The translations under genes and the position numbers were made by a program. The notes below the pieces were generated by a model. It was not told the DNA's origin. It saw nothing but the letters and a program-made list of their open reading frames with translations, and searched no databases. This document shows positions 13,437-64,000 of a stretch of DNA of 64,000 nucleotides, in pieces. Origin of the DNA: Phoronis australis (Eukaryota > Animalia > Phoronida); assembly GCA_002633005.1 (NCBI GenBank), contig NMRA01000123.1:480553-544552 (forward strand). Reading direction: 5' to 3'. The number at the start of each line of letters is the position of its first letter. Position 1 is the stretch's first letter.

Positions 13437-14650
13437 TACCGGTGGCCACAGACTAAATGCATGACAAAAAATTTAGCTAAACCCATGTTTATTTTGTGTA
13501 ATTAGCTCGAAATTTTGATTTTTCTTTCAATTTTGCCAATTTTCACATTTCCCGCCATGTGACGTCATGGGTTGAACACAAGAGATCGGTGACAAGCATT
13601 GAACAATGGCGGAGACCAGGGAATTTGAAAGTGACGACGATTATGAGCAAGAATTGAACGAATACTATGAAGAAACGTACGGGAATGGTGGCCAGGATGA
13701 GGAAATGGGGTTGCACGAAAGCGAGAACAAGTTTATTGTGCTTCCGGCTGCGTACTTTTCTACTTTGAGCCTTATGAACTGGATCCTCCCGCGAGAGAAG
13801 CGGCCTCGGGCTCGGCGAGTCAACACAGTCATCCAACAGACTTTCCTGAATTAAGAGCTGATGTTTCCGAATGATAAATATTGTCCCGTATTGAACCAGG
13901 CCTTCATCGTAACGTATCCTGTGACTGGAGTCGAAACACGAGTCCTCAAAGTTGGCAGAACACAGAGTGGCCCCGGACCGAATCGCTTGGTCCACGATGA
14001 CGTCCCACAGTGGCCACACTCTCGTTCGGCGCACGAAGCCATGCCACTTCTGCGCAACTTTGGTGTCCTTCGGAACACCGAGACGTTTTCCGCCTGGCTG
14101 CTGTTGCTGCAGCCTCCGGAAACACATCTTTTGATCCCTCTACGAACCTTCTCGACTCTAAATGTACTTTGCTTTCTCTTCACTCTATACACTTTGTCTC
14201 TGACCCGAACAGTATTGCGAACGACTTGGGTTCAACCCATGACGTAGTACATAATTATTACTTTTTTCAGTTTTTGCGTGTTTCTTTATGAGCTGTGCAC
14301 TAAAGGCACTGAAATCAAGTAACATAAAAGAATAAAATTTATTTTGAGGTACTAGAGTCATGTTGTGTACACTTTAAACGAAAATTTGATGATGGCGTAC
14401 ACAAACCAGCACAATCTTAGGCCTACATACATGTAAGCGTGTGTTGGAAGGGGACTCAAGAACAAGTGCAGGCAACCAAATCAGTTTGAAGCTTAAATTG
14501 TCCCGTCTGTCGCTTCCTGTTGGACACGTGACCTGCCGCATGCAGGTACGTACATCATATGAGGTACGAGTGACAGGTACAGTATGTTATGTGTAAACAT
14601 ACATGTATATCCGATATTTAAATATACTCTACCTGGCCACCAGGTATAAA
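13437..14650. mobile_element. Non-autonomous DNA transposon relic with frameshifted THAP (minus) and convergent acidic ORF (plus); possibly Kolobok-related
   Basis: Minus: RCVSGGCSNS...KDTKVAQKWHGFVRRTR...LCSANFEDSCFD (THAP). Plus from 13606: MAETREFESDDDY..., and in a shifted frame FYFEPYE. Weak inverted ends (ggtggcca / tggccacc); boundaries approximate. Confidence 0.6.
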
Positions 14651-27080: not shown

Positions 27081-29996
27081 TCAACCTGTCCGGGGGCTTA
27101 ACATTTCTGAGCGAACGTCTAAGAGCCGGTACTGGCGGAGCTTCCGGAAAACAGGCACAGATGCTGAGGGTGATTCCACGACATCCCTGTTAGATTCGGG
27201 AACAATGGGTGAACTCAACATATCATCAGGGCTTGTCGCTGAATCAGGCACATTAACATTAGGCACAGGTTCAATCATTACCAGAAGACAAATGATAGTT
27301 ACTTCTACACTTCTATCATGCAAACTGGGAGATGTACAATCTAGCTGCATCTGGTCAACATGACGTCTGTAATATTTGTCATTGACAGATTTCACCAAAT
27401 ACATGCGAGACCCTAAACTTTCCATAATGATACCTGGCAACTTATTAGGGCCAACACCAAAGTTTTGAAACAGAACCTTATCACCAATCTCAAATACACG
27501 TAATTTACCAGATTTGTGATTTTCACATTGAAAAGCTTGTTTAGTTTTGACTCGGCTAGTGAAATCAGGTTTCACTCTGTTTAAAGCAGTCATTAATCTA
27601 CGATTCATAAGCAACTCTGCGTGTGTAACTCCCGTCACAGAATGTGGTCGTGTTCTGTAGCTCAGTAAAACCCGTGACAAACGTGTTTCGAGCGACCCTT
27701 CTGCGACACGCTTCAAACCATTCTTGATAATCTGCACTGCCCTTTCTGCAGCGTCGTTCGATGCAGGCTTAAATGGCGCACTAGTGACATGCTTAATACC
27801 GTTTTTCACAAGAAAATCTTGGAATGTCCGACTAATAAATGCACTAACATTATCTGAAACAATGGTATCAGGCAAACCATGGGTTGCAAAAATACGACGT
27901 AATTTCTCAATGGTCAACTCAGCAGTAATGCTGCTCATGGTACATGACTCAATCCATTTAGAGTAGGCATCAATGACTATGAGAAAATACGTACCGAGAA
28001 ATGGTCCAGCAAAATCAATATGAAGACTTTCCCAAGGTGCGGTAGGGAGCTGCCACATGCTCAATGGTGCCTCAGCAGGTTTCTTACTCAACATTTAACA
28101 AGTTTTACATTTCCTAACAACATCACTGAATCTAAACCAGGCCACCAAACATAGTTTCTACTCAAAGATTTCATAGCACAAATACCAGGATGTGCATCAT
28201 GTAACTCATCTAAAATCTTAACACGACCTTGCGGGGGAATAATCACACGTGATCCCCACAAAACTAAGTTGTCTTGTACACTTAGTTCAAGCTTCCTGCT
28301 TACATAGGGTGTCAAATCATCAAGTAACTCAGGTGGTAACTTATCCCAACTACCTGACATAATACATGACTTAACAGTAGATAACACAGGTCACGACTTG
28401 TCCAAAGTCTCAACTGCGATGCAGATACAGGAGATTCACTATTTTGTAATGTTTGCAACAACAAAACCAGATCACCAGGGGTAGGAGTGTTTACCTCCTG
28501 AAACGGCAATGGCAATCTACTGAGAGCATCTGCAACACAATTGGGTGATCCCTTACGATAACAAATACAGTAATCATAACCTGACAACGTCAAGGCCCAA
28601 CGCTGCATTCTGGCAGACGCCATAGGAGGTATAGATTCTGTCCCATGTAAAAGGGTTAAAAGGGGTTTGTGATCTGTTTCTAGTGCTAATTTACGACCCC
28701 AAACATACTGGTGCATTTTCTTAACAGCGAAAACACAAGCTAGACCCTCCTTGTCAACCATCCCATAGTTTCGTTCGGCCTTGTTCAAAGATCTAGATGC
28801 ATATGCAATAGGCGATTCAATTCCATCAGGGTTTATGCGAGACAAAGTGCAACCTAAACCATACGAAGACGCATCACACGACAGTAGTAATGGTTTATCA
28901 GGGTCATAATGAACTAACAATGGAGATGAACACAGCAGTTCCTTCGCACCATCAAATGCCCTCTGACACTCTGCCGACCAAAACCAAGTTTGATTACGCC
29001 TCAACAACCGATGAAGAGGTTCAAGTGATGTACTCAAATCACGCAAAAAAGATCCATAATGGTTTAGCATACCCAAAAAGGCTTTGAGTTCAGAGGCATT
29101 TGATGGTACGGGAGCATTCAAGATAGCTTTAACACGATCCTGAGTAGGGCGAAGTCCTTCAGAGGTGACGCGACGACCCAAATACAACCTCTGACTGCAT
29201 CAGTGAATACTTGTCTTTACGGAGCCGAAGACCGGATTCTGAGAAACGATGCAGTACTTCACGCAGATTGTCTAAGTGTTCCCTATCATCAACGCCAGTA
29301 ACAAGCACGTCATCAAGGTACACAACTACGTGCGAGATACCTTTCAACAATGTTTCCATATGGCGTTGAAACAGACCTAATACCAAACGGACACCTGTTG
29401 TAGACAAACAATCCGGGGTGTGTGTAAATAGTGGTATACATTTTGGACTGCTCGTCCAACTCAAGTTGGTTGTAAGCGTTCGACATGTCCAACTTCGTGA
29501 ACTTCTGTCCACCGGCTAATGACGCAAACAAATCGTCCATACACGGAATCGTATAGCGGTCTAACTGAGAAACTTTGTTCACAGTTAATTTGTAGTCACC
29601 ACAGATACGCAATGACTGACCATCAGCCTTGATAACTGGCACAATGGGCGCAGCCCAATCAATGAACTCAACTGGTTTAACGATGTCAAGCCTCTGCAAA
29701 CGATGCAACTCCTCTTCTATTCTAATGCGCATAGCATGAGGCACAGAGCGAGCTTTGCAGAACAGTGGTGTGACGTCAGGGTCCACATGAATTTTAGCCT
29801 TCACATCGCGCAAAGTACCTAAAACCGGTTCGAACAAAGTTGGAAATTCATCCAACACATTTTTAGACACATCAACAGAGTTGACTGGTGTTCCTTGCAT
29901 GTTGAACTCGCGCAACCAACTGCGACCCAACAACGTTGGACCTGCACTCTCCACAATCCACAACTTCAGATCCTCGACACAACCTCGGTATTTCAC
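27081..29996 (-). pseudogene. pol: Gypsy pol (RT, RNase H, integrase) broken into several frames
   Basis: WAAPIVPVIK, LRICGDYK, YLDD, CDASSYGLG, TDHKPL, NCVADALSRL, LHDAHPG..WWPG, HIDFAGPF, DTIVSDN, AERAVQ. Confidence 0.93.
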
Positions 29997-30038
29997 AGAA
30001 ACAATGCATGAACCGGCAACCGGTATCGGTTCCTTAAT

Positions 30039-31037
30039 TTACGTACGCAATGGCAACTCTTCTGGATGCGAATCATCACTCCACGTCTCGAAAAATGTGT
30101 CACGAGACATAAGTGAACGACTGGAACCATTGTCAACCTCCATGGTAACAGGTATTCCATTAAGAGTCAATGTCAACCTGTCTGGCTCATCACCGATAGT
30201 TTCATTTATGTGATACACACCATAGGCATCCACCTCCTGTGTGTCCTCTTGAGACGTTTCTTGAGAGCCTGGAGACACAGATACATGGTGGGTTGAATGA
30301 CATACCTTTTTAATGTGCCCTATCTTACTACATTTGTAACATGTGGCATTTATGAACCGGCACTCATGAACCTTGTGCTTGCCTTTGCAACGCCAGCATG
30401 ATCCATTGAAGTTTGACGGTGTGGAGCTATTTCCACGAGTTCTACGAGGTGCAGGGTTGGGCTTGGGTTTCACCCCACCTTCAGCTCCAGCTACTTTGTG
30501 AACATCTTGCGGTGCTGGGCGGATTTCTTTAGAGTCCTTCTTCGCCGCCTCCATAGCAACCACAATGTCAACGGCATCTTGAAACTTCAAGTTTTTCTCC
30601 CGTAAGACACGTTGTTGCATTTTATCTGAGTAAAGGCCCATAACCAACTGGTCTCTTAGACGCTCCTCAAGTGTAGTTTTAAAATCACAGTGAATACTTA
30701 GGGTTTTCAACGCCGCAATATAATCACGGGTGGACTCTGTGGGCTTTTGTATCTTTTTCATGAATCGGAAACGTTCCATAATCACCACCGGTTTTGGAGA
30801 GTAATGTTCTTTCAGCGTAGCGACGCATTGTTGAAACGTTTTGTCCTTAGGGGCTGCCGGAGACACCAATGTTTTCAACAGATCATAAGCCGTTTCACCG
30901 ATAACGGCTAAAAAACAACTAACATGTTTTCCGGAGGGCAAATCATTTGCCTCGAAATACGCCTCCAATCGTTCGATGTATGACTCAAAGTTAGTTGATT
31001 CTGTTAATGGAGATATTGATCCAATTAAAGACGACAT
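30039..31037 (-). CDS. gag: Gypsy gag-protease (in-frame stop in the protease region)
   Basis: ATG after the PBS (MSSLIG); YIERLEAYFEAN, ERFRF, LRDQLV; knuckles CWRCKGKHKVHEC and CYKCSKIGHIKKVC; protease motif reads VDNG rather than DTG. Confidence 0.88.
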   Translation of the reverse strand: MSSLIGSISPLTESTNFESYIERLEAYFEANDLPSGKHVSCFLAVIGETAYDLLKTLVSPAAPKDKTFQQCVATLKEHYSPKPVVIMERFRFMKKIQKPTESTRDYIAALKTLSIHCDFKTTLEERLRDQLVMGLYSDKMQQRVLREKNLKFQDAVDIVVAMEAAKKDSKEIRPAPQDVHKVAGAEGGVKPKPNPAPRRTRGNSSTPSNFNGSCWRCKGKHKVHECRFINATCYKCSKIGHIKKVCHSTHHVSVSPGSQETSQEDTQEVDAYGVYHINETIGDEPDRLTLTLNGIPVTMEVDNGSSRSLMSRDTFFETWSDDSHPEELPLRT

Positions 31038-31055
31038 TTTTATCTCGTCGCCAAC

Positions 31056-31212
31056 TGTTAACGTTGATGATCCCAGATTCGATTCGAGTCCGTTCTTAAA
31101 AGACACACTACAGCCATTTTTGAGGAAGTCACTTGACATCTATTTTGCAGGCAGCGGAGAGCGTACATCAAACAACACGTCATCTAGCGGTCACAATACA
31201 TAATCTATTACA
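31056..31212 (-). repeat. 5' LTR (157 bp)
   Basis: Direct repeat of 26868-27023 with about 6 substitutions and 1 indel; adjacent to the PBS. Confidence 0.95.
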
Positions 31213-44535: not shown

Positions 44536-45462
44536 CTATAAAAATGTTGACCTGTAGGACTTACGAGCTGGAATCGTGCCACTGAACATCTTTGCTTTCA
44601 ACAGATGTTGTGATGCATCCGTACAGTAGGTTTGCGACAAGTAACTGAAACCACTTTCGCCGCATAAAAAGGTCGCATGTATATCTCTGCGATTTGACTC
44701 AAAATATCCGGATTCAACAAGTTTATCAATTGTCTTCTGTACATCTCTGCCCTGCAGTCCCGCCGTTTGCCAACATCGCAACGTCACGGCCCTTGCCAGC
44801 TGTTTTGGTGGCTTCCCGCGTAAGTTGTCGAAGTTCTTGGAAAGGAAAATACCACTGTACCCTACATTCTTCATATCTCGCATCATCACACTAAAATCAG
44901 ATCTTGTCCTCTCAGAGACGAGTAAAGTAAATATTGAAAATCCTGTGCTAAGGTAGGCATCTTTGATAAAGCTGATGTCATACTTCATAGGATTCCTCGT
45001 CTTCATGCTAGAAGTCTCCTGTGTAGGACCGTCCATAAGGACTACTAATACCTGTACATCCTGAGTGTTTGATGGTGAAAACATTTCTAAACGAGTTTCC
45101 GACAGGGCAAGGGCTAAGAGTCTTTTGCGGTTATTGCAATTCAACGCAAAATTTGTTGGCAGTTCTAGCCAATCTAAAGCATTATGAAAATTACTTTTGT
45201 TAACAAGATGGATTCTGACATCACTCAACACATCTGAAAACATTGCCATACTGAACAGTTCCGTGTCACCGAAATTTTCCGCAACTGAGTGAAGAAATTC
45301 TTTTATTTGTTCAAACTTTTTCCCCGAAATCCCGATGCAAGGAACCAGAAAATTAATCCTCATCGCACAGTCCTTCGGTGGTTCACTTACAGAAATGCAC
45401 TCAGTTACTGACATAATCGCAATAAAAATGATCTCTTTTCTTGAATCTGCACAACAAAGCAT
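44536..45462 (-). CDS. Intronless vWA-domain-like protein with degenerate MIDAS
   Basis: 308-aa ORF: C..RINFLV, FEQIKEFLHSVAENF, FSMAMFSD, LALALSETRLEMF, QVLVVLMDG, FSIFTLLV follow the vWA strand/helix order, but DxSxS is absent. Confidence 0.65.
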   Translation of the reverse strand: MLCCADSRKEIIFIAIMSVTECISVSEPPKDCAMRINFLVPCIGISGKKFEQIKEFLHSVAENFGDTELFSMAMFSDVLSDVRIHLVNKSNFHNALDWLELPTNFALNCNNRKRLLALALSETRLEMFSPSNTQDVQVLVVLMDGPTQETSSMKTRNPMKYDISFIKDAYLSTGFSIFTLLVSERTRSDFSVMMRDMKNVGYSGIFLSKNFDNLRGKPPKQLARAVTLRCWQTAGLQGRDVQKTIDKLVESGYFESNRRDIHATFLCGESGFSYLSQTYCTDASQHLLKAKMFSGTIPARKSYRSTFL

Positions 45463-45806
45463 CTTCGATACCTCATTCAGGAAATGGCAAAAGTTCTAAG
45501 ACAACTTCATTGCGTCGTTAATTCACTATGAACGTGCTAACTTGTTAAAACATGACGTTACTTTTGAAATGCATAAGATTTCACGTATCTAAAACTCGTA
45601 ACATATTAGTCAGTCCACCTATTGTGGGACAGACGTACCTTCCAATGGAAGGACGGATCCAAAATGGAAACGAAGGACTATGACTGGGATGGATGAGTGT
45701 TGAAAGTACCGTCATTGTCTGATAAATTATGTACACACTTAAACCTCGCAGCATACCTTTCAAAGTCTACATCTTTAGCACTGTGCCTACTACAGCAACT
45801 GTGCCG

Positions 45807-52321: not shown

Positions 52322-53137
52322 TTATTCTATGCGCCAAACTGAGGATTTTTTAAAGAAGCGGGTTTACAGAGATTGCTCCTGTTGTTTTGGTGTCGTTTGT
52401 CATCTTTTATCAATGATGATTGCAGATCGCGTGACACGTATACGTGCACGCAATTTTTTTATGAATGAGTTTTTTGCAGCCTGCATGATACGGAAGTCAA
52501 GTTGTATTTTACAGCAGCTACAGGCTTTGGGTGAATATCTGCTATTTTCGGTATTTTTGAGTTTGAGCTGCATTTATTTCTAAGTTAAAGTGTGCTTACA
52601 TTTCTGACGATTTTTTCTTGACTTCGTTGAGTAATATCTTTGCAGGACACCCAGATGTTGTTGCTGATGCACGTTCAGACGCTTCTTAAAAATGCTCCTT
52701 GCGCGCGGTTCTTATCATTTTTAGGTAGAAAGTATTCCGAAATTTATGGTAAAATTGACAAAAACGCAGTGTTTACAGAAATTGCAGTTTTGCTATTGGT
52801 CTCGACGTATTTTGATTGGTTTGAGAACGAATTTAAAAATTCACTCATATTTGACCGTAGAAAACCTTAATTGGTGTACCGCAATAGGTGACCAAAAAGT
52901 GGCATGCATTTGTATTGTAAAGTGTATTGCTTTCCTAATCCCAAATATATTGTGGCAAGTTCGAGACTTTTTGTGATTTAAGTATTCTATCCAGGTGCAA
53001 AATTTTACGGTATATTAAGAAATATTGTCAGCGATATTTTCATTTCACTTTTTTGTTTTGTTTTCAGAACTCATATCATAGTATTTGCATGTGAAAATAT
53101 TGCGCACGGAGCTGAACCCAAAGTGATGCTATATATA

Positions 53138-53299
53138 TAGATTATTACACGGCGAAGTCGTTATCCCCCGTTATCTAGAGCCCGAGTGGATTTTGGAGAA
53201 TTATCGCCAGAGGGCGTTAGCCCCGAGGGTAATAATTCTACAAAATCCACGAGGGCTCTAGATAAGGGGGGATAACGACTGAGAGCATGTAATAATCTA
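53138..53299. repeat. 162-bp hairpin
   Basis: tagattattaca..agtcgttatccccc.ttatctagagccc..gtggatttt pairs with aaaatccac.agggctctagataa.ggggggataacgact..tgtaataatcta. Confidence 0.85.
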
Positions 53300-55297
53300 C
53301 TTATACCACATACTGAACGAGAAACATTGCAATGAATCGATCTACCTTTCTCGACTCGGCTCAGCTTTGTAACTACTTTCTATGTCAGAGGCCCGGGGTC
53401 GTAGGTCGTGACCTTTTAAGAAAAGCCGAGATTTTTTTGTAAAATAATGCTTTTACTCAAAACCAATTGAAAAATAAAACAAAATAGAAATAAAGTGAAT
53501 CTATAAATTAAGGTTTAGCAACTGTTATAGCTTACTACACATTTTATCACGCTAAGATTCGACCGGGAATGTCGTCTGCTAAAGTAGGTTACCACTAGTA
53601 ACTGACTATGATGCTCAAGTCAAAGGATACCGACCACACGACACCTGCATTCAAATTGGAGATCGGTGATTTGCAACGCGCGTTGAATACGGAAAAATCC
53701 ATATTCAATGCGCGTATTTCTTCCGTATCAAACCTCACTATACGACCCGTATTTCATGGACATACTATCACGCGTATAGGATAATTCCAAATATTAGGTG
53801 TAATCGTTACTTGATAGTGAAGTGTTATGTCTTTTGAGATGCTTTAGAACGATAATGCGAAAAGTGTCATATTCTTCAAATGCAGTTATTCTGCAAATGG
53901 GTAGGTATCCTGATTTTTGTGGCACTCTGCATCCAAAAAGATTCCGTTAATTGTCCCTCCGAGATCTTAGTGTGTACAGAAGCTGAATGCCATCAACAAC
54001 TCTTGCTGGTTCCCTGCCTGTCCACTTCTCACTAGTGGACACGACAGTATTATTTATCAGCACGCGTTTTATCGTTGGTTGATGTAACCTCGACGGTAAT
54101 TAGTTAGCTTTAAAACAAAGAGAGAAAATGGCGGACTGTGAACGATTTTTAGCCTTGTCATTATTTTTGCAAAACCAAATTTTCTCTCTACATGTTCAAT
54201 AAAGTCAAAAAGACAAAGTGCTTGAAACACACACAATGCACACAGATCTGGCCGATTTAACAGGTGTAACGGTGTTACTTAACGGTGAAAATACAGCACA
54301 GCAACGTAATCAATAGTCAGGGACAGCAAAAAGGCACACCGAAAAGGCACAATCACAGCTTTCCGATTCACTTTTCTTGAACATATCAAAATTAAGCATC
54401 AAGTTGTCTGTACAACAGACAACACACTACATGTATATCCATATGTATTCCCCCTCCATCAGCCATGCCCGTGTGTTTAAGTTTGACGCGCCATCTGTTG
54501 ACAATTCGACCAGCCAATCAGAAACGCCGGTGTACTAAATTTTTTGTCGACGAAAATCAAATGATACCTACGTGTCCCCTTCCACTTAGTGGACACGCAG
54601 GGAATCAGTAAGCCGACAACTGAGGTCTGACCGACACTCTTCACGGTAACCACATGGAAGCGTTCGTTCTGTAACTTCGTTTTGCCGTCTCCTTGGACAA
54701 TACTCAGTATGATGACAGTTTGCGTCCCTGCATGACGGCGACATCCCGTTGCTCCCAACTTGTTCGATTGGATAGCCCAACAACAAGTTGGGAAGTTTAC
54801 CCCCCGTAGCCAATTAACTCTATTCTGGCGTTGATGGTTGGAGGGCCTGCGCTCTTTTGTTTCATAATTGCTCTAATCTCCGATCAGATCGTATCTAAAG
54901 GTGTAGCCTGACTGGGGTGGGCTGATAAAAATGAAAGTTAAGTTAAGCCAGATATTATTGCACGTTCAGCACCCCTCACGTCTGGAAAAGTTACTGAACG
55001 ACAGGACGCTGTAATGGGTATTGCAAATTCTAGGTATTTGCTCACACTTCTCGTCCACATTTCCCAGGACGACATCCATATCTTCTTAAATAGTGCACAA
55101 TATTCTTCTTTTTATATTGAAAAATAAAGATTTGTTAGTTCCGTAAAGCCCCACTGCGAGCGATGTTTTTCGCGTCATCACTGAGTCTGCACAGCACAAA
55201 GGGATGAAGGTAATTGGCAGTGTTAGCAAAAAATCAACCTATGCATACTCGCAACCTTTTGTTTTTTCTTTTCTGTGACGTTAGTGCATCCCTGGGC

Positions 55298-55572
55298 CTA
55301 GCCAGTTAGCTAGCTGTATGGAGATTATGATAGCAAAAATAAAGCTATATTTCGTGGAGCCGAAAGCCCATGGAAAATGTCGCACCACACTTTTAGCAGC
55401 AAAAAAACGATAGAATTCCAATTTTTCCAACAACGCCAAGTAACTTTGTTTACTCAAGGAAGAGTGTAATTTTCAATGACACTAACTTTGTGTGAGATTT
55501 CATTTGATCGGTGTTTACACACATCGGTGCAAAACTGTTTAGAGGATACAGCTTTGCACCAATGCTACGCGG
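55298..55572 (-). repeat. Internally deleted copy of the ~750-bp repeat family
   Basis: ctagccagttagctagctgtatg ... tttactcaaggaaga ... cacatcggtgcaaa.ctgt ... atacagctttgcacc. Confidence 0.7.
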
Positions 55573-56665
55573 TGCCACGACACGACAGTAAACTTGTATA
55601 ATGAACTTTTGTGAGCCGAACCATCAGACGACTTATACACATAAAGTACAGCAGCAGGAATTAACATTGGAAAATTCTTTAAAAAATAAAGAAATGTGAT
55701 TTCGTATAGCGGACGACCAGTGAAAGCGTCGCCTAAGCGATATACTTGAAATAACAGGTCACGCAACGATATAGGTGTAGACAAAAAACTATTGTTGTCA
55801 TTATGAAACATGGCGGAGAGCAGTGGAAGCCGACATTATAATAGCATAGTTAACAAAATCATTACATATACTTGCAGAATTCCTCAAGCAAGGAGATACA
55901 ATATATGCTGGTCGAGCAGGGGCGTTGAAAATTATACATTCGTTTTGACAGTAGGACTGTAGACGGTCTCAAAACGAGGCATCGATTTTTCTGTCGCACT
56001 TTTGTCACATGACTATTGTACGGCTGTTATCATTAGACACCTTCCCGAGTGGTCTGAAAACATGTTGGTCGGACATTTGAAAACTCAAGCTTGGAAGTTT
56101 GGAATTGTTAATTCATTTTTTACTATTCACAAAAAGAATCCCACGTTGACACCTTAACCGGTCGAGATTGTGCAACTCGACCGGTTTGCGCACCTCAAAA
56201 TCTTCCGGTTTAGATAAAAGACACCATGTTGTGGTTAATTAAATCACTGTCTTCAGCCTGCTGATTTTATCGTTCGCTAAATAATGAGACCCATCATAAA
56301 CACCTTGAGGGCGGCATTTTTAAGTTTTGTGAAAAGCAAACGTGATAAGGTTTTGCGTGTCTGTTTAATGCTGCAATATGTTCCTCATTAATTCTGCTGG
56401 GTGTGAAACAATAATTTTGCCGATTACCAAACTACCAGCCAGTAGTGGGATTTTGAGGTAAGCCAAGTGTCACCGTAAAATTCTTAGCATGTTGAATTTT
56501 CTTGCAGAAATGTTCTGCAGTATTTGCCCAATGTTCGAGAAACTTCTTGGCTATTTACACTTTATTTTTCTACATGTATGTTGCTAGTTTATGCGCACGC
56601 GTCAGAGAAATGCACGTTGCTTAAGCTGCAAAAACTTACTCCCACGAGGGGAAGACAGCTGGAAT

Positions 56666-57792
56666 CACAGGCGCTTGGGTTTATCGCAAATGACGTCACT
56701 CAATAATATATATATATAAGAAAACATAAAGGTTGGACACTTGAAATCTGTTTCCTAAACATTTTCTACTCAAATGTGCATGGAACTCTACGAAACTAGC
56801 ATCGAACAACTCTTAGAATACCTTCTTTCATTTGATCTCTTCAAATTGCCTTCGAGTGGTGATTTGACGACAACAATGCCAAAAGAATGCCAAAATCACA
56901 AATTCAAGGACCTGATTCCGTGATGTCATGGCAGACGGTCTTCGCACATCCGGGTTTTTGACGAACGCTCCCGAGCTAAATCCGAAAGTCTAATTTCGCG
57001 CAGCTTTCATCGTCAATACCTCGACTACTTGATCATGAGAAGCAGAGAGCACTTTATTGCCAAATAAATGTAATTACTCACATATTTGTGTCAAATATAA
57101 ATTATCCTGATACTGTATTGATATGCGAAGTTTTTGTGTGCTGTGATTTCTTATGAAGGTTTTACTTTTGGCCAAAACCATTGAGTTAACTCGTCGGCCA
57201 CGCGCATTGTAATACTTGCACGGACTGCGTTTCCTGGCCGAATGTGTGTTGTGCTTCAATCAGAAAAGTGCGTGATGTCAAGATGAGAAACAAGATACGC
57301 CAGTTTATGTAATAAAATTCTAAGTTAAGGGCTAAAATGAGCCGTCAGTGGAATAAAGTTACAAATAATCATTAAAATACTAACTTTAACATTCTCAATT
57401 AGTTGAGTTTTGGATTAGAATTATTGAATTTGAAATATAGGTTGCTTGCTCAAACTCGAAGTTTCACCTACGACAGGCGTACAAGTTGAAGCACAACTGA
57501 AATCCGCCATGTTTACTATTTCAGATCCTTGAATTCAGAGTTTTGAGATTGTTTTGGAAATTTCATCGCCACTTCACCACTCACGAAGACAGTTAATGGG
57601 ATCTAGGAAAGATAAGGCTTTGAATGTTTATGCAATACCAGGCTAAGGGAGGTGCACGCAGATTTTATTTGGATTTTGGACGGTTGAAGTTGGGAGCCTC
57701 GGCTTGGCAAAGTTTAAGTGTCCAACCTTTATGTTTTCTTATATATATATATTATTGAGTGACGTCCTTTGCGATAAACCAAAGCGCCTGTG
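56666..57792 (-). mobile_element. Same 1.1-kb MITE, copy 2, inverted relative to copy 1
   Basis: Same TIRs; TSD GCTGGAAT at 56658-56665 and 57793-57800; the interior is the near-identical reverse complement of 46885-48000. Confidence 0.95.
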
Positions 57793-58388
57793 GCTGGAAT
57801 TTGGATCAGAATCTTACAAAAGGACACAGGAGAGCTCATATGTAGCTTTGAAGTCCATCATAAGGCGCAACTTTTATTGTGGTACATGAATAAGGCATGT
57901 GTTTGATTAATCAATTTTCTACTATTTTTGCATGGTCAAAAAATTGAAGCTTCGACATAATTTCAGAGCTTTCTCAAGAAATTTTCTTAAATTCTCTTAG
58001 TTACGATTTATAGTTGTCTCTGCATCTACTTGGCCACTGGTTGATTAATATCCCCAATGTGTCCGATTCCATCCATTTTGGTACACGCGGGTCCTCTTGA
58101 GTCTAAACTCACAAATAAAATGTTAATGAGTGAACATATCGTGGTGATCTAACTTGCTTCTAGTTCTCAAAATACTCGGGTCTGTCCGAATGTTCACAAT
58201 TGTAGTGCATTTCCAAAAATTACAACCTAATTGAAAAATTCAACGATAAAAACGTCAAACAATCGGCCAAAAAAGACAATTTGTAGGCAAGTGATTTTAT
58301 TTGTGATACTGTGAAACCATAAGCTGGAGAAAGCAACAAGTGATTTCACTGGCCACACTTGTGAGTCGTACGTTGAACAAACTTACAT

Positions 58389-60371
58389 TCATTCTGCGGT
58401 ACACGCACTTATCTGTTTAGTAACTGATTCCTTTCCTTTACTCTGTTGAATACATTCTACCTGTCTATCTCCTGTGGCCGCTGTCGGAGGCTCTGTGCAA
58501 CGTTTTAGGCACAATTCGCACACAGACTGCGCCCAGAAGTAAAATGCAAACGCAGCCGCCCCTGTGCTTTCAAATTTCTTCTTGCTGTGCATGTCTAGCA
58601 TTTCGTTTGCTCGTGCAGCTATTTCCGGGTGCAGATTTTTGTGTTTGAAACGCTTGACGCGTCTAAATATGTCTTCATAATCTTGAGTATTAACTGTAGA
58701 AAGCCTTTTCTTACACGATTCCCAGTCGCTTGTTTCGATTTCGGCGTCGCCTAGAATCAACAAACTTGCTCTCATAGTGTCAACCAAGTGATTCGGTGGA
58801 TCTTCAATATCGATGACTTTTGAAAGTGCGCCTTTGTTAAATTTCAATATTACTTGTTTGAGGTTGTCTGAGTATTCCAGATCCTCATTCAGCCTCTTTC
58901 CAGTGACGTATTCCGGAACAGTCGTTCTGTCAAACGACGGGTCCTCTATTTTCAACAAAACCTCTTTCAACTTTTTCTCATTTTTCTCTTCAATGGCTTC
59001 AACCAAGACTTTTCTATTCTCAAGCTGTTCAGCCAATTTCCTGGATTCGGCAATGAGATTCTTATCAGCAATTATGGCTGGTGTGTATTTTTGGATAAAT
59101 TCTTCGTATTTTTTCATCGATTTTTGGATGGCACTTAGATCCCGCATCCCCACTGCCTCGTTGAGTTTTTTCTTCCGCTCATCCAGTTTCTGGACAACTT
59201 CTATTCCCACTGGTTCGCGGATGCTCTGCCGGGTCGTCACTATGGTCTGGACATGCTCTCTGGCCTCTTTGGCTTCCTTAGCTGCCATCTCAAACATTTC
59301 ATCTGCCCAGGTGTGCACACAGTTCTTTGCAACCGCGACTAGCTCGTCGTCTGCATTGAACAACCCTGCGTTGGTTGCCATGAACTCCTCATACAGGTGC
59401 AGAGCTTCTCGTAGATTCTCAGGGTCGTGGTAAGCCACGGCGCTACGGAGGTTTTCATGAAGCACATTATGCTGTACTCTCCTGTTGTTGGCCTGCTGTT
59501 GTCTTTCCCGTATCATAGCCTCAGCTCTCTCAACCAGTTTGTCTTTGTACACCAACTTACCTTCATGCAATTTGAAAAATAAATTATATCGTATCAGTGC
59601 ACGTTCAGTGTCCTGAAGGTGACCCGACTCCAGCATTTTTTCCAAGTGCATAACCAGTTCTTCTAGTTCTTGTTTGAGCTCCAGAAACTCTTCGCCTTGC
59701 TTAGCAAGGAAATCTTTGGCGTCTGCAATCAGTTGATTATCTGGTGTAGAATGCTTGTGTTCCTTTACGAAGTCTTCGTATTCAATCAGAGTGGCTTGCA
59801 CGATCATGCTTTTCTCACTGGAAATTGCATATCTGAGTCTCTGTGACAACACCCTCTCGGTAGGCGCCATGCTTTCTTTAATAGAACGCTGCCGCCTCAT
59901 GAAGACTTCAGCCTGCAGTAAAAGTTTTTTCTGCGGTTGGACGACGACGCAATTATAATCTTCGAAAGCTTTCAAAGTCTGAAAAGCGTCTTGGACATTT
60001 TTTCGGACGCCTTTATCCAACGCCCTTTTTAAATCGTTTATCAATTTTGCATGTTCCTTCTTCAAAGCAGATTTGCTCTGTGTGTATAAATTGATATAAT
60101 TCTTTGCTTCATCGACGAGTTCTTGGTCAAAAACAAGACTGTTGGAATTGTCTTTCACAAAATTGACGTAATCAGACAAAGCCATTTCAATGTGTGTTTT
60201 TCTTTTCTTGTCCAATGCGGATCTTAGGATCAATTTAAACTTTTCTGCGTGTTCCGCTGCTTCTTCTGGCGCAAAGACGTCAACACGTCTTTTCGGCCGA
60301 GTCACACAGAGAACAATCACAAAAAGACAAATTGCCATGGCAATAGCGGCCGATATGATGACGTATTCCAT
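58389..60371 (-). CDS. Single-pass membrane protein with ~6-7 helical repeats and a C-terminal dynein-MTBD-like domain
   Basis: Uninterrupted 660-aa ORF from the first ATG (684 aa from TTG). N-terminal TM VIISAAIAMAICLFVIVLCV followed by RPKRR; repeats L..AL......L..AL..Y..F.........D..LI..AK; C-terminal PP..LV.TM.A.L.ILG.....W..C...L...F...V..F....LHPEIAARA...L......A..FY.WA. Confidence 0.85.
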   Translation of the reverse strand: MEYVIISAAIAMAICLFVIVLCVTRPKRRVDVFAPEEAAEHAEKFKLILRSALDKKRKTHIEMALSDYVNFVKDNSNSLVFDQELVDEAKNYINLYTQSKSALKKEHAKLINDLKRALDKGVRKNVQDAFQTLKAFEDYNCVVVQPQKKLLLQAEVFMRRQRSIKESMAPTERVLSQRLRYAISSEKSMIVQATLIEYEDFVKEHKHSTPDNQLIADAKDFLAKQGEEFLELKQELEELVMHLEKMLESGHLQDTERALIRYNLFFKLHEGKLVYKDKLVERAEAMIRERQQQANNRRVQHNVLHENLRSAVAYHDPENLREALHLYEEFMATNAGLFNADDELVAVAKNCVHTWADEMFEMAAKEAKEAREHVQTIVTTRQSIREPVGIEVVQKLDERKKKLNEAVGMRDLSAIQKSMKKYEEFIQKYTPAIIADKNLIAESRKLAEQLENRKVLVEAIEEKNEKKLKEVLLKIEDPSFDRTTVPEYVTGKRLNEDLEYSDNLKQVILKFNKGALSKVIDIEDPPNHLVDTMRASLLILGDAEIETSDWESCKKRLSTVNTQDYEDIFRRVKRFKHKNLHPEIAARANEMLDMHSKKKFESTGAAAFAFYFWAQSVCELCLKRCTEPPTAATGDRQVECIQQSKGKESVTKQISACTAE

Positions 60372-63077
60372 TGTGTCATGGGCTGGTATGTTCGACCCTG
60401 CAAACACATCATACGGATACTGGGCTAGAATTAGTTCAAGCAAGTGATCTAAACGTCATTTCCTGAGTGCCCGTTGTTTGAAATTGAAAAATGTGTAATA
60501 GGTGAATTACGGGTTCGCCGTACACAAGTCCGTGTATTGAGCCAAATGCCACAAGACTATGTTTCTTAGTGGAATACAGCTATTTTCTGCAAGTAGAGAA
60601 GCTGTAGAATTTGACGCTTTACTTCATACCAACCCGCCAATCTTTTGGGTCGCGTGACCATACCGTTTTAGCAAACGTAAACTTTTTAAAGGCAAGTAAA
60701 AATAAGGAAACGTTCAGCCCAAAGAAATACTTAACATGGCCAAATTTCATTTATTAAAAAAGTGCAAAAACACTGCTACAGTCCAAAAATGTTCATCAGG
60801 GCTGGGTTGCATAAAACTTCAAAATTATCCGCTTGATATGTTAGGTTGTTACATGACTTCAGGTGCATTGTTCAACAATAACAACGTGACACGTCATTGT
60901 TGCTATACGGCGTATAACGTTTATGCAACTGGGCCCTTGCTGGTAAATGTCCATTATCGTTATCAAAAGGGTTATATGAATACAAGCGGGTTGATTTGTT
61001 CATCATTGAGACTTTCACCTTTCACGCGCATGCAACAAGAACCGGTTGCAGATGCAAGGTAATTCCCAGCCTCGAGTACACACTGTAGGGGATGTGGCGC
61101 CTGATTTGTGCGACCACTCTGATCTACTCGAAACCCTACTAGTGGCACAGAGAAGAGGAAAAGCAAATGTAAGACAACGTTACAATACAACGCGATGGCG
61201 AAGGGATAATGAAGCCGTCATGACTTGTATGTGTCATAGGCCCACACAATATGTTTTGAAACTATAAAAAGCTAAATGATATATTTCACATTAGAAACTG
61301 TTCATGTTGTATGAAAGTCAAATGCACGGTAAAAATAATAGGTGTACTCGTATTATAAATGTCGTATACATCTGGTTTAGCTCATGTATGGTTGAACCAG
61401 GGAGTCGGTGATGAACAATATTTTTGTCGGAATTCAAACAAAATCTGAGAGGTGTTAACTTTCAAAGTTGGTTGTCGGTAGCAAAAAAGTGTGAATTTTA
61501 CAATAGAATCAAATCTGGGTTGTGTTGTAAAAAGTATCCGTGTGGGGAGATGACGCAGCACCAGATAATTCTTCATAGCAATTATTAGATATTCGCCAGT
61601 TCGTCGCATAGATGTCGGTAGATTGGCGTAGCCTTCTGTGGCCAGTTGCATAAAAGTTTCGAAAACCATATATTCTCGTTTTATCGTTTATGAACAATAA
61701 AAAAGTCATTTAATGAGATCACTTCAATCGAAGTAAAGCTCACGTTCCTAAATTGGTGAAAATCGCCTCCAATGACGTAACTGCATTGTGAAGTTTGCTC
61801 CCGCCTGTGCCATTGTCGCAAAACAGAGCATTGATTCGGTAAAGATACTTCTTATCATGCCATGAACAGCTTCAAGGCACACTTTTTGTGGTCAACCATG
61901 CTGTTCTACGTTGTACAGTAATTTTTCTTTAGCCAGTGAGTACGAGGAAACTAGCCTATTTAAAGAGGTCGTGTTAAAACACGATCTCTTTTATACAGCT
62001 CTTATGTTTCAAAAAAGCGATTTTTTTCATAATGTCTGAACATCACAGATAAGAATGGTCTGACCTGTAAACTGCAGTCTTAAAAACACCTTCGACAAGA
62101 TATGAAACTACATGCTAGGAGTTTTTCAAAAAGTCATTTTGAGTTTTAATGTCATGTGACCGTTTTTTTAAGGAAAGACGAGACATTTGGTTCGTTCTGC
62201 AATTACAAATGAACAGCTTAAACCCAACTAACCGGTGTGCTTACGTAACTTTTGAAAATCTAAACGTGATTGCGTGTGTGTGGGGTGACGAGTGTTTATG
62301 CATAAATAATTGCTCTTTTCAACTGTTTCTATACTAATTCACTTGTGCAATGTTTACGTGTTGCCCTGATACTTTTTTGTAAATTCGATTTCTGAGCAGT
62401 GAATGTTATCCGTAGTACTTAACTATAACCGTCAATTAAAAACTTTACCAATCCAATAATTTGTGTTGGTGACATCGTACATTTTACATATCAATTGCCC
62501 GACTCATCCCGGACTACCCAAGTTTTTATTTTTCCCGACATCCCGTCACACCACTAGAGTGTCCCGCTTTTTGGCACACGGCGACACTGACATAATATCA
62601 CATAGTATTCTAATTGCACACGCGACATAGACCTATTCTCTCGTTCGACTAAAAAGGAAAAAACGGCACGTTTCATGTGTTATCTAGTTAGCCGTAATTC
62701 CGCATTCGAGTTCAAAAACAACGAAAATTACTTGTGGCGCTTTTGGTCTCCCGTTAACGTTGTCGGGATGCGTTTGTGTGCTGCGGCGAACATTTTACCC
62801 TTTCATGGCGTACATCGAGATAACCCACTTTTTATTCGGAAGTCCCGCTTTTCAATCCGCTTTTATGATTCTCGAATGTCGACAACTGTCCAACAGGTGT
62901 TCATTTGTACCTATGTCATGAATATTGTTATTCCCCAGGTTCCACTTCTTTTAGCAGCATAACAATAAAAAATGTGCTCCAATGCTCCTTGTTTATGATA
63001 ACAAACACTGCATTTACTGATTTTTTACATTCTGAACAAATTACTTTATTTATTAGCTGCGATATACATGTAAATAA

Positions 63078-64000
63078 GGGGCCCGTTCCAAGAAACTGAC
63101 TTAAGTTCATTTTTGACTTAAGTTTAAGACTTTTCTTAAGTTTTTGACTTAAGACAAACCCTAAGATTATTTTGCGTTCCAAGAAACAATCTTAGCTAAG
63201 ACTGACTTAAGTTTTTGTCTTAACTTTAAGTCAACTCTCACCTTGTCTTAACTCGATCTTAAGTTTTTTAAAATGGCCGTATACCACATTCGTCAGCGAA
63301 GAAAGGAAAACCTAGGCAGAGTTTATCGAGAGCGTCTTCAATACGACTCGTATGTTGACCGGTACCGGAAACAAGGATGCAGTTGACTTATTATGCTCTT
63401 TTTTAAAAGACGACCTCGAGCCAGAAACTCGCAGAGGATATTCACTTACAACTGAGCAGCAAGTCTCAGTTGAGTTGCGGTTCTACGCCACTGGAAGCTT
63501 TCAAACGGTCGTAGGTGATAGCCAAGGGGTGACTAAGTCGACCGTTTCAAGAACGATCACAAAAGTAACAAATGCCATCATGCCATCAACAATTCACCCG
63601 ACTTGTCGCTCCCCAACTTGATCGACAACATCGATCTGTACCAGCGGCAATTCCATCAAGTCGCTGGCTTTCCCCGTGTTGTGGGATGCGTAGATGGGTC
63701 ACTAGTAGCGATTAGAGCACCACAGCATGATGAGCAAACATTTGTTTGCAGAAAAGGCTTCCATGCCATAAACGTTCAAGTGGTTGCAGACCCCTTTTTA
63801 AGGTAAGTATCCCAAGTTAATGTCCTTGCTAGAACAACGGAGTCGTCTTAAATAACAGTGTAGGCTACTACTCGACACTATATGAACCGTTCAGTCCACA
63901 GCGTAATTATAAACTTAAGCTGTTTGATTGACCTCACGCGCGACCAAGCAGTCTCTGTTATTGTCTTTGGATACAATGTATTACTGACTTCTGTCGCACG
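63078..64000 (+). mobile_element. PIF/Harbinger transposon, 5' part
   Basis: TAA followed by GGGGCCCGTTCCAAGAAAC terminus, dense subterminal CTTAAG repeats, then transposase sequence. Confidence 0.8.
63273..63802 (+). pseudogene. HARBI1-like (DDE_Tnp_4) transposase, frameshifted, followed by an intron
   Basis: [47 protein letters not shown]; two frame changes; gtaagt donor at 63803. Confidence 0.9.

Follow-up and report, generated by a model that had tools for sequence, protein, structure and literature searches.

Can the microtubule-binding part of a dynein serve in a protein that has no motor and is held in a membrane? The question is raised by a 64,000-nucleotide stretch of the Phoronis australis genome (assembly GCA_002633005.1, contig NMRA01000123.1, positions 480,553 to 544,552; hereafter the window), in which a long open reading frame (ORF) on the minus strand was originally predicted to encode a membrane-anchored rod of helical repeats ending in a module like the microtubule-binding domain (MTBD) of dynein. 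We find that the gene is spliced and expressed, with the 2-kb ORF as its last exon; that the homology of its C-terminal domain to the dynein MTBD, judged from profiles and predicted fold, is secure; and that the encoded protein (the query) is, by sequence, a diverged, predicted membrane-spanning member of a motor-less family and not a dynein. What the protein does admits only more tentative answers, among which a passive link between membrane and microtubule is the one we consider best. The argument draws on the following features of the gene.

58389..60371, minus strand: open reading frame P0001, 660 amino acids (aa), with its ATG at 60371 and stop at 58391-58389; the coding portion of the last exon
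58497..58871, minus strand: domain homologous to the dynein MTBD (residues 501-625) and lacking long stalk and motor, from profile and fold comparison
58863..59015, minus strand: seventh, diverged helical unit (residues 453-503), corresponding to the helical unit that stands before the domain throughout the family
59016..60239, minus strand: six helical repeats of about 55-65 aa (residues 45-98, 110-163, 175-226, 238-293, 304-358 and 399-452), from self-alignment with shuffles
60285..60362, minus strand: predicted transmembrane helix (residues 4-23, hydropathy 3.1) followed by basic TRPKRR (24-29), implying a cytoplasmic C-terminus
60398..60399, minus strand: splice acceptor AG; the last exon begins at 60397, in phase 1 relative to the ORF frame
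58296..58301, minus strand: AATAAA, a probable polyadenylation signal; RNA read depth stops near 58288

A dynein-type domain in a motor-less family

As a single sequence the query gave no useful Pfam, NCBIfam or PDB sequence match (EcoRV entries at E 0.09-0.24 were dismissed as chance), a word-indexed search with residues 440-640 returned 0 of 1388 candidates, and BLASTP against one dynein reached only E 0.17. An exhaustive search with residues 498-640 recovered 52 proteins at E ≤ 0.001, or 51 relatives once P0051 was dropped as a repetitive false match. When a profile of the query and 31 shorter relatives was searched against the PDB, dynein MTBDs came first (6kjo, E 3.4e-12), and each of the 60 entries shown was either a dynein heavy chain or the MTBD of one, a radial-spoke label being attached to one 4583-aa chain. 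A profile of the query and all 51 relatives found 27 dynein-sized proteins among long sequences, every one with PF12777; 27 of 30 ESM Atlas matches fell within the PF12777 set; and hhalign to one dynein heavy chain gave P 95.5% over 112 columns. The query does not reach PF12777 at its gathering score, 10 of the 32 aligned members match it at E ≤ 0.1, and P0018 alone passes the cut-off.

The predicted fold points the same way. Residues 446-636, modelled with a 52-row alignment, reached a predicted local distance difference test score (pLDDT) of 93, in a model that, being built from an alignment, reflects the family as much as the query copy. Foldseek with this model ranks dyneins at the top, with E 2e-3 at best, and a VIA-align search of 48161 chains, in which 7 chains reach Z 8, gives 3err at Z 15.4 (root-mean-square deviation (rmsd) 4.0, 143 aligned), 5ayh at Z 15.3 and 8i3j at Z 13.4 (rmsd 2.6, 122 aligned); 3wuq scores Z 14.2 (rmsd 2.1, 119 aligned). 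A warning attached to VIA-align is that the arrangement of helices alone can take a helical model to Z 13-14. Unrelated entries end near Z 7 in the wide search, and in a second comparison one mitoribosomal chain stood at 9.2 over the first 54 residues only. We regard homology to the dynein MTBD as secure because unrelated folds stop near Z 7 and the sequence profiles agree, and the stalk-head likeness first noticed by eye is thus confirmed both by profile search (E 3.4e-12) and by fold comparison (Z 15.4 to 3ERR).

The prediction that the protein is motor-less also stands. The Pfam scan of the 660 aa detected no AAA family that would mark an AAA+ motor ring (the unseen upstream exons would precede the predicted membrane helix), and the long stalk is absent. 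Counted over 65 family domains and 26 dyneins, with near-duplicates and fragments removed, the proline of the first stalk helix (CC1) is present in 26 of 26 dyneins and absent from the query and from 65 of 65 family domains. The helix resembling the second stalk helix (CC2) ends at about residue 623 in the model, and Pro629, within a tail whose alignment is poor, falls close to the CC2 proline. Only 35 residues follow the domain, whereas dyneins run on for about 750-1350.

Against a family profile built without it, the query scored 101.5 bits, whereas dyneins scored 23-48 bits; 47 family members scored by leave-one-out ranged over 58-160 bits, 40 of them above the query. A quick tree of 80 domains and 135 columns (13 rows dropped beforehand, many forks open, rooted at the midpoint, which is no true root) puts a long branch between 18 dyneins plus P0018 and all other domains (Shimodaira-Hasegawa-like approximate likelihood-ratio test, SH-aLRT, 99) and places the query inside the remainder, with a terminal branch of 1.16 against a median of 0.48. 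Because the domain scores far higher with the motor-less family than dyneins do, and because the tree places the query inside that family, the absence of motor and stalk probably dates far back and is common to the family, not peculiar to this gene. The idea of a domain captured from dynein therefore survives as homology to the dynein MTBD; as a recent capture it probably does not. P0018 (JGI/IMG, 149 aa) carries a dynein-type MTBD (PF12777 E 7.6e-12) that is apparently free-standing; it was excluded from the core profile because it groups with the dyneins, and was kept in alignments A1 and A2.

The 51 relatives are varied upstream and uniform at their ends. Eighteen have KY-type Ig domains, most of these with a transglutaminase-like core, and others have VWA, CLCA or CARD domains. 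Thirty of the 51 were looked up, and the 17 that bear a species name are all from invertebrate bilaterians: the annelids Ridgeia, Owenia and Dimorphilus, the molluscs Pinctada, Pecten, Nucella and Mercenaria, the flatworm Macrostomum, the brachiopod Lingula, the amphioxus Branchiostoma and the tunicate Styela, with no vertebrate, arthropod or cnidarian among these 17. A further search brought bivalve proteins under the names hillarin-like, LTD-1-like or kyphoscoliosis peptidase. The domain occupies the C-terminal end, 48 of the 51 ending within 130 residues of it, and it usually follows a helical unit, one to five such units being detected per relative; the query likewise has a 35-residue tail and a domain that follows a helical unit, with a weak match to the pre-domain unit. 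By a simple pattern, a myristoylation-type motif stands at the start of eleven relatives, every one of them belonging to the group of 18 with KY domains; in P0036 and P0049 the domain is preceded by a transmembrane helix, and P0117 too has a hydrophobic helix upstream. Three proteins of oysters and pearl oyster (P0003, P0097, P0098) have two or three MTBD-like domain copies, which could be tandem cross-linkers or merged gene models. We found no Pfam model of the family's own, nor, in a literature search of mostly open full text judged from titles and abstract openings, a description of a dynein-MTBD-like domain in KY/hillarin-like or membrane proteins; this family of stalk-less, motor-less dynein-MTBD domains in invertebrates is apparently undescribed.

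The last exon, its predicted membrane helix and its rod

The frame at 58389-60371 is indeed open, with 660 aa from the ATG, but its description as intronless is not borne out by the raw reads of three RNA runs, all of one study (X2, X3 and X4), mapped to the locus. At the acceptor AG (60399-60398) reads leave the genomic sequence for two different upstream sequences, the commoner represented by 22 (X2) and 14 (X3) loose read ends at 60398 and the other by 13 (X2) and 9 (X3) at 60399; both upstream sequences are absent from the window, searched with up to 3 mismatches. That two upstream sequences are joined at an acceptor AG shows that the gene is spliced. The loose ends have median lengths of 48 and 88 for one kind and 38 and 16 for the other; trans-splicing was considered as their source and is judged the less likely one, since two kinds of such lengths fit ordinary upstream exons better. 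In the other, less common upstream sequence an in-frame stop stands immediately before the joint, and the 660-aa protein as first read fits that splice form. In the commoner one the reading frame of the ORF stays open over the 10 codons shown; the protein of this splice form may extend further upstream, so that the hydrophobic stretch would be an internal membrane helix, and may, but need not, carry an added ectodomain, because ten open codons can arise by chance.

Coverage of the ORF by X2 and X3 is even (binned depth 28-120), shows no splice joint or indel within it, and has first mates on the plus strand, as a minus-strand transcript should give. The two runs place 986 (X2) and 858 (X3) reads in 57900-60800, or about 36 reads per kb per million, and X4 a single read at the locus, so that the gene is expressed in 2 of 3 RNA runs. 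Six differences in the coding region occur in about half of the reads and are allelic; 4 of the 6 alter a residue, a sample too small for a judgement on selection. Elsewhere in the window neither the domain nor a repeat turned up a second time.

The only strongly hydrophobic segment is formed by residues 4-23 (Kyte-Doolittle 3.1), the sole later window above 1.2 being one of 1.25 at residue 604. Taken with the basic cluster that follows it, and by the positive-inside rule, this suggests a cytoplasmic C-terminus. The signal anchor of the original prediction is thus retained as a hydrophobic segment followed by TRPKRR, while its N-terminal position holds at most for one splice form.

Between membrane helix and domain lies the rod, for which 6-7 repeats of about 65 aa had been proposed; the three motifs then quoted are located at residues 49, 179 and 308, and self-alignment, with best lags of 130, 65 and 129 aa, supports six or seven units. 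In shuffle tests repeats 1, 3, 5 and 6 resemble one another at z 4.4-9.0 and repeat 4 resembles repeat 1 at z 4.5-5.1, while repeat 2 is weak (best z 3.4-3.7, with repeat 4) and the seventh unit has no significant similarity to the other repeats. The seventh unit, modelled at a pLDDT of about 90, scores 11.0 bits against the family's pre-domain profile with bias correction off (1 of 198 shuffles as high), and repeat 6 scores 13.7 bits under the same setting (1 of 200 shuffles as high); with bias correction on, the whole rod scores -5.9 against that profile. A profile of the repeats aligned to the pre-domain profile gives P 30% and E 5.5e-4, a weak likeness. Repeat starts are spaced about 65, 65, 64, 65, 95 and 54 aa apart, and this unequal spacing makes the array irregular at its end; no tandem repeat is present at the DNA level. 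A full-length single-sequence model (pLDDT 57, predicted template modelling score 0.26) renders the units as helices with long connecting helices, locally confident and unreliable in overall shape, and an ESM Atlas search with residues 1-500 gave no usable match.

The rest of the window, at about 40% GC, holds few long frames. A Ty3/gypsy-type long-terminal-repeat retrotransposon coding region lies at 27081-31139 (minus strand) in four separate frames matched by Pfam (gag/zinc knuckle/protease, reverse transcriptase, RNase H and integrase), with an interrupted pol. A 319-codon frame with a VWA domain (E 1.6e-5) at 44536-45495, on the same minus strand and 13 kb downstream of the gene, is probably an exon of another gene. 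Overlapping frames at 13543-14247 with a weak THAP match (E 0.12) are probably a DNA-transposon remnant, and a short frame at 63352-63621 resembles, by eye, a transposase fragment. At 52800-58000, 60800-61200 and 62800-63600 both strands carry stacked reads rich in mismatches and loose ends, as for dispersed repeats.

A proposed passive linker and its rivals

The predicted protein would cross the membrane once, its cytoplasmic part being a helical-repeat rod tipped by the MTBD-homologous domain. The rod would act as a spacer, and a basic face formed by helices H1, H3-H4 and H6 would dock on tubulin; with no stalk to slide, affinity would be fixed and not switched by nucleotide, giving an ATP-independent link. 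Such a passive membrane-microtubule linker is the best reading, to which we give slightly less than an even chance, fold and membrane helix being predicted and binding putative. The recurring predicted membrane anchors in the family, both myristoylation-type motifs and transmembrane helices, count in favour of a link between membrane and microtubule.

The available excerpts of two studies describe how dynein itself makes contact: mainly through H1, H3 and H6 (PMC6629372), with named contacts at K3298, K3299, R3337 and R3382 (PMC6629372, PMC4987762), in an MTBD that is net neutral with a positive interface (PMC4987762). The H1/H3-H4/H6 segments of the query sum to +5 and the rest of its domain to -6, and the same segments are net positive in 59 of the 65 domains of the family and in 24 of the 26 dyneins, with a mean of +3.3 in both, although sums over sequence segments are not a map of the three-dimensional surface, which counts against leaning on them. 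The comparison favours a tubulin-facing basic surface for the family, with real doubt for the query copy. At mouse K3298, K3299, E3304, R3306, R3337 and R3382 (numbering taken as that of P0078 plus 2, E3304 and R3306 being our own numbering) the query has N, K, K, I, K and S, so that two basic residues are kept, Lys standing for K3299 and R3337, and four are lost. The core W, P, L, G, F, Y and W residues are kept, and so are 15 of the 22 columns conserved in at least 65% of the family.

Several observations weigh against the linker. The query differs at 7 of the 22 conserved columns, among them those of the helix-1 Glu (62 of 65 family domains, 26 of 26 dyneins), which we infer to be the tubulin-contacting Dictyostelium E3390 named in the available part of PMC4987762 and which is K518 in the query, of the family Tyr (60 of 65), which is I522, and of the helix-6 Ser (59 of 65 family domains, 26 of 26 dyneins), which is G604; R3306 and R3382, two of the four losses just given, are replaced by I520 and S602. 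Helix 1 of the query has a net charge of -1, and just 3 of 65 members equal or undercut it; across the family, K3298, K3299 and R3382 are mostly missing; and the upstream exons are unseen, so the predicted whole protein is known only from its last exon. Because the helix-1 Glu and helix-6 Arg are missing, any grip on the lattice would likely be weaker, more electrostatic or differently posed than that of dynein.

We consider it unlikely, though far from negligible, that the MTBD fold is instead an interaction module for a non-tubulin partner, the protein being a membrane scaffold that holds this partner away from the membrane. VIA-align also matches the domain to chains that appear, by length and numbering, not to be dynein heavy chains: two from the Chlamydomonas radial spoke (7jtk_C, Z 11.6, rmsd 4.2, 144 aligned; 7jrj_I, Z 7.3), one from the bovine sperm axoneme (9fqr_Xl, Z 10.3), possibly EFCAB5, and one from the Toxoplasma intraconoidal microtubule (9ya2_L, Z 9.5, rmsd 3.2, 126 aligned). 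The spoke and sperm chains speak for the scaffold and against the linker: direct tubulin contact is not established for them in the excerpts of the literature covered. EFCAB5 is located in the stalk of radial spoke 3 according to the available part of PMC11779644. The Toxoplasma chain speaks for the linker, being from its size and numbering probably ICMAP2, a 1678-aa protein of which, in the accessible text of PMC12819142, a globular tenth is resolved as a dimer lying between protofilaments 3 and 4, showing 8-nm periodicity on the microtubule; that text also has ICMAP2 contacting unknown helices and does not describe it as using dynein's site, which tells against the linker. MTBD-likeness of these chains is not stated in the available portions of PMC12819142, PMC11779644, PMC12423330, PMC13443885 and PMC10266980, and a term search of PMC13406575 found no mention of such a domain; the 'MTBD-like' element of the TTLL11 papers (PMC12366701, in its accessible part) is an unrelated motif. 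Further points for a scaffold are that a dynein MTBD also binds the light chain LC1 (title of 6l4p), and that the family, while mostly not keeping dynein's K3298, K3299 and R3382, has conserved positions of its own without dynein counterpart (the Tyr before the PP motif, in 60 of 65, a Gly-Lys in the H3-H4 loop and an Arg-Arg in H4). Against it, the charge asymmetry equals that of dyneins in sign and size and lies on the tubulin-facing segments, and the helix-1 Glu is kept across nearly all of the family (62 of 65).

Less likely still, in our judgement, is the suggestion that the family binds microtubules and the query is a diverged paralogue whose tip activity is largely lost, its role lying in the rod or in an unseen ectodomain. 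The suggestion is favoured by the replacement of E, R/K, Y and S where they are otherwise conserved, the long terminal branch, the score of about 100 bits below 40 of 47 leave-one-out scores and the 4 of 6 coding allelic differences that change a residue, but six such differences give too small a basis for measuring selection, the reading frame runs unbroken through 660 codons with an expression of about 36 reads per kb per million in two runs, core residues are kept at 15 of 22 columns, and the basic face exceeds the family mean. That the exon is a fragment of a dynein heavy-chain gene, belongs to a pseudogene or is the source of a secreted protein, its resemblance being without cytoskeletal meaning, is very improbable, the first two forms being largely refuted: a single sequence without Pfam, NCBIfam or PDB sequence match, a BLASTP E of 0.17 to a dynein and a hydrophobic stretch that can be a signal peptide are what it has to offer, but the protein stops where dyneins continue and groups apart from the 18 dyneins (SH-aLRT 99), the gene is spliced with a probable polyadenylation signal, and the 20-residue stretch, with no basic residue before it and a basic cluster after, is unlike a cleaved signal.

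If the linker reading is carried over to the relatives, it is conceivable, although we would not count on it, that the family running from flatworms to amphioxus and tunicates comprises undescribed cortical microtubule anchors, each made of a stalk-less MTBD, a lipid motif or transmembrane helix, and variable repeats. The query would then be a receptor-like member coupling cell surface to microtubule lattice, with a re-tuned grip that does not need the helix-1 Glu or helix-6 Arg. The dynein MTBD has been studied as a part whose affinity the motor sets through the stalk, and a natural stalk-less, motor-less family of small, testable proteins would reveal what the MTBD does alone and what its resting state is. 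If true, this would also assign a function to the C-terminus, unannotated as it is, of many proteins that appear as 'hillarin-like' or 'kyphoscoliosis peptidase' in omics lists from molluscs and annelids, and would point to a direct membrane-microtubule link in animals of which we found no description. Should binding fail, the family would still show the MTBD fold put to use for interactions in general, a use at which the radial-spoke matches hint.

Comparison with known systems

As for the rod, the 660 aa have no Pfam match to spectrin or TPR repeats, and Foldseek of the low-confidence full-length model returned TPR-like entries only, uninformative at a query TM-score of at most 0.11. The tip can be placed more firmly. 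The other MTBD-fold chains (9ya2_L, 7jtk_C, 7jrj_I and 9fqr_Xl) match its predicted fold at Z 7.3-11.6 with 11-16% identity, and none is shown to be membrane-anchored. With the dynein MTBD (the middle of PF12777; 3ERR, 5AYH, 3WUQ, 6RZB, 6KJO, 8I3J) the query shares the predicted helical fold, short flanking CC1/CC2-like helices, the PP motif after H1, the LLG after H2, the invariant Trp in H3 and in the CC2-like helix, and basic tubulin-facing segments, at 13-15% identity in the best structural alignments. Unlike a dynein heavy chain, it has no detected AAA+ ring, no long coiled-coil stalk or CC1 proline, and a domain in C-terminal position behind a predicted membrane anchor and repeat rod, with the equivalents of the helix-1 Glu, R3306 and R3382 replaced.

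Likeness is closest to the KY/hillarin-like, LTD-1-like, VWA, CARD and CLCA-like proteins (for example Lingula XP_013404632.1, Owenia CAH1802903.1, Styela XP_039271221.2, Branchiostoma XP_078700756.1), with which the domain shares up to 38% identity (best E 5e-15), its C-terminal position and a preceding helical unit of like kind, many of these relatives having predicted membrane anchors. The KY, hillarin and LTD-1 domains Transglut_core (PF01841) and Ig-like_KY (PF23265) are absent from the 660 aa by Pfam, and, unlike its relatives, the query exon encodes six or seven repeats against the one to five detected in them and is more diverged at conserved sites. In the CLCA-like proteins of Branchiostoma (XP_078700756.1 and XP_019614282.1, our P0036 and P0065) a CLCA/VWA ectodomain is present and the rod has no similarity found to that of the query, yet a transmembrane helix is followed, as in the query, by cytoplasmic helical units and a like C-terminal domain. 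By analogy, such a protein could be a model for the query's in-frame splice form.

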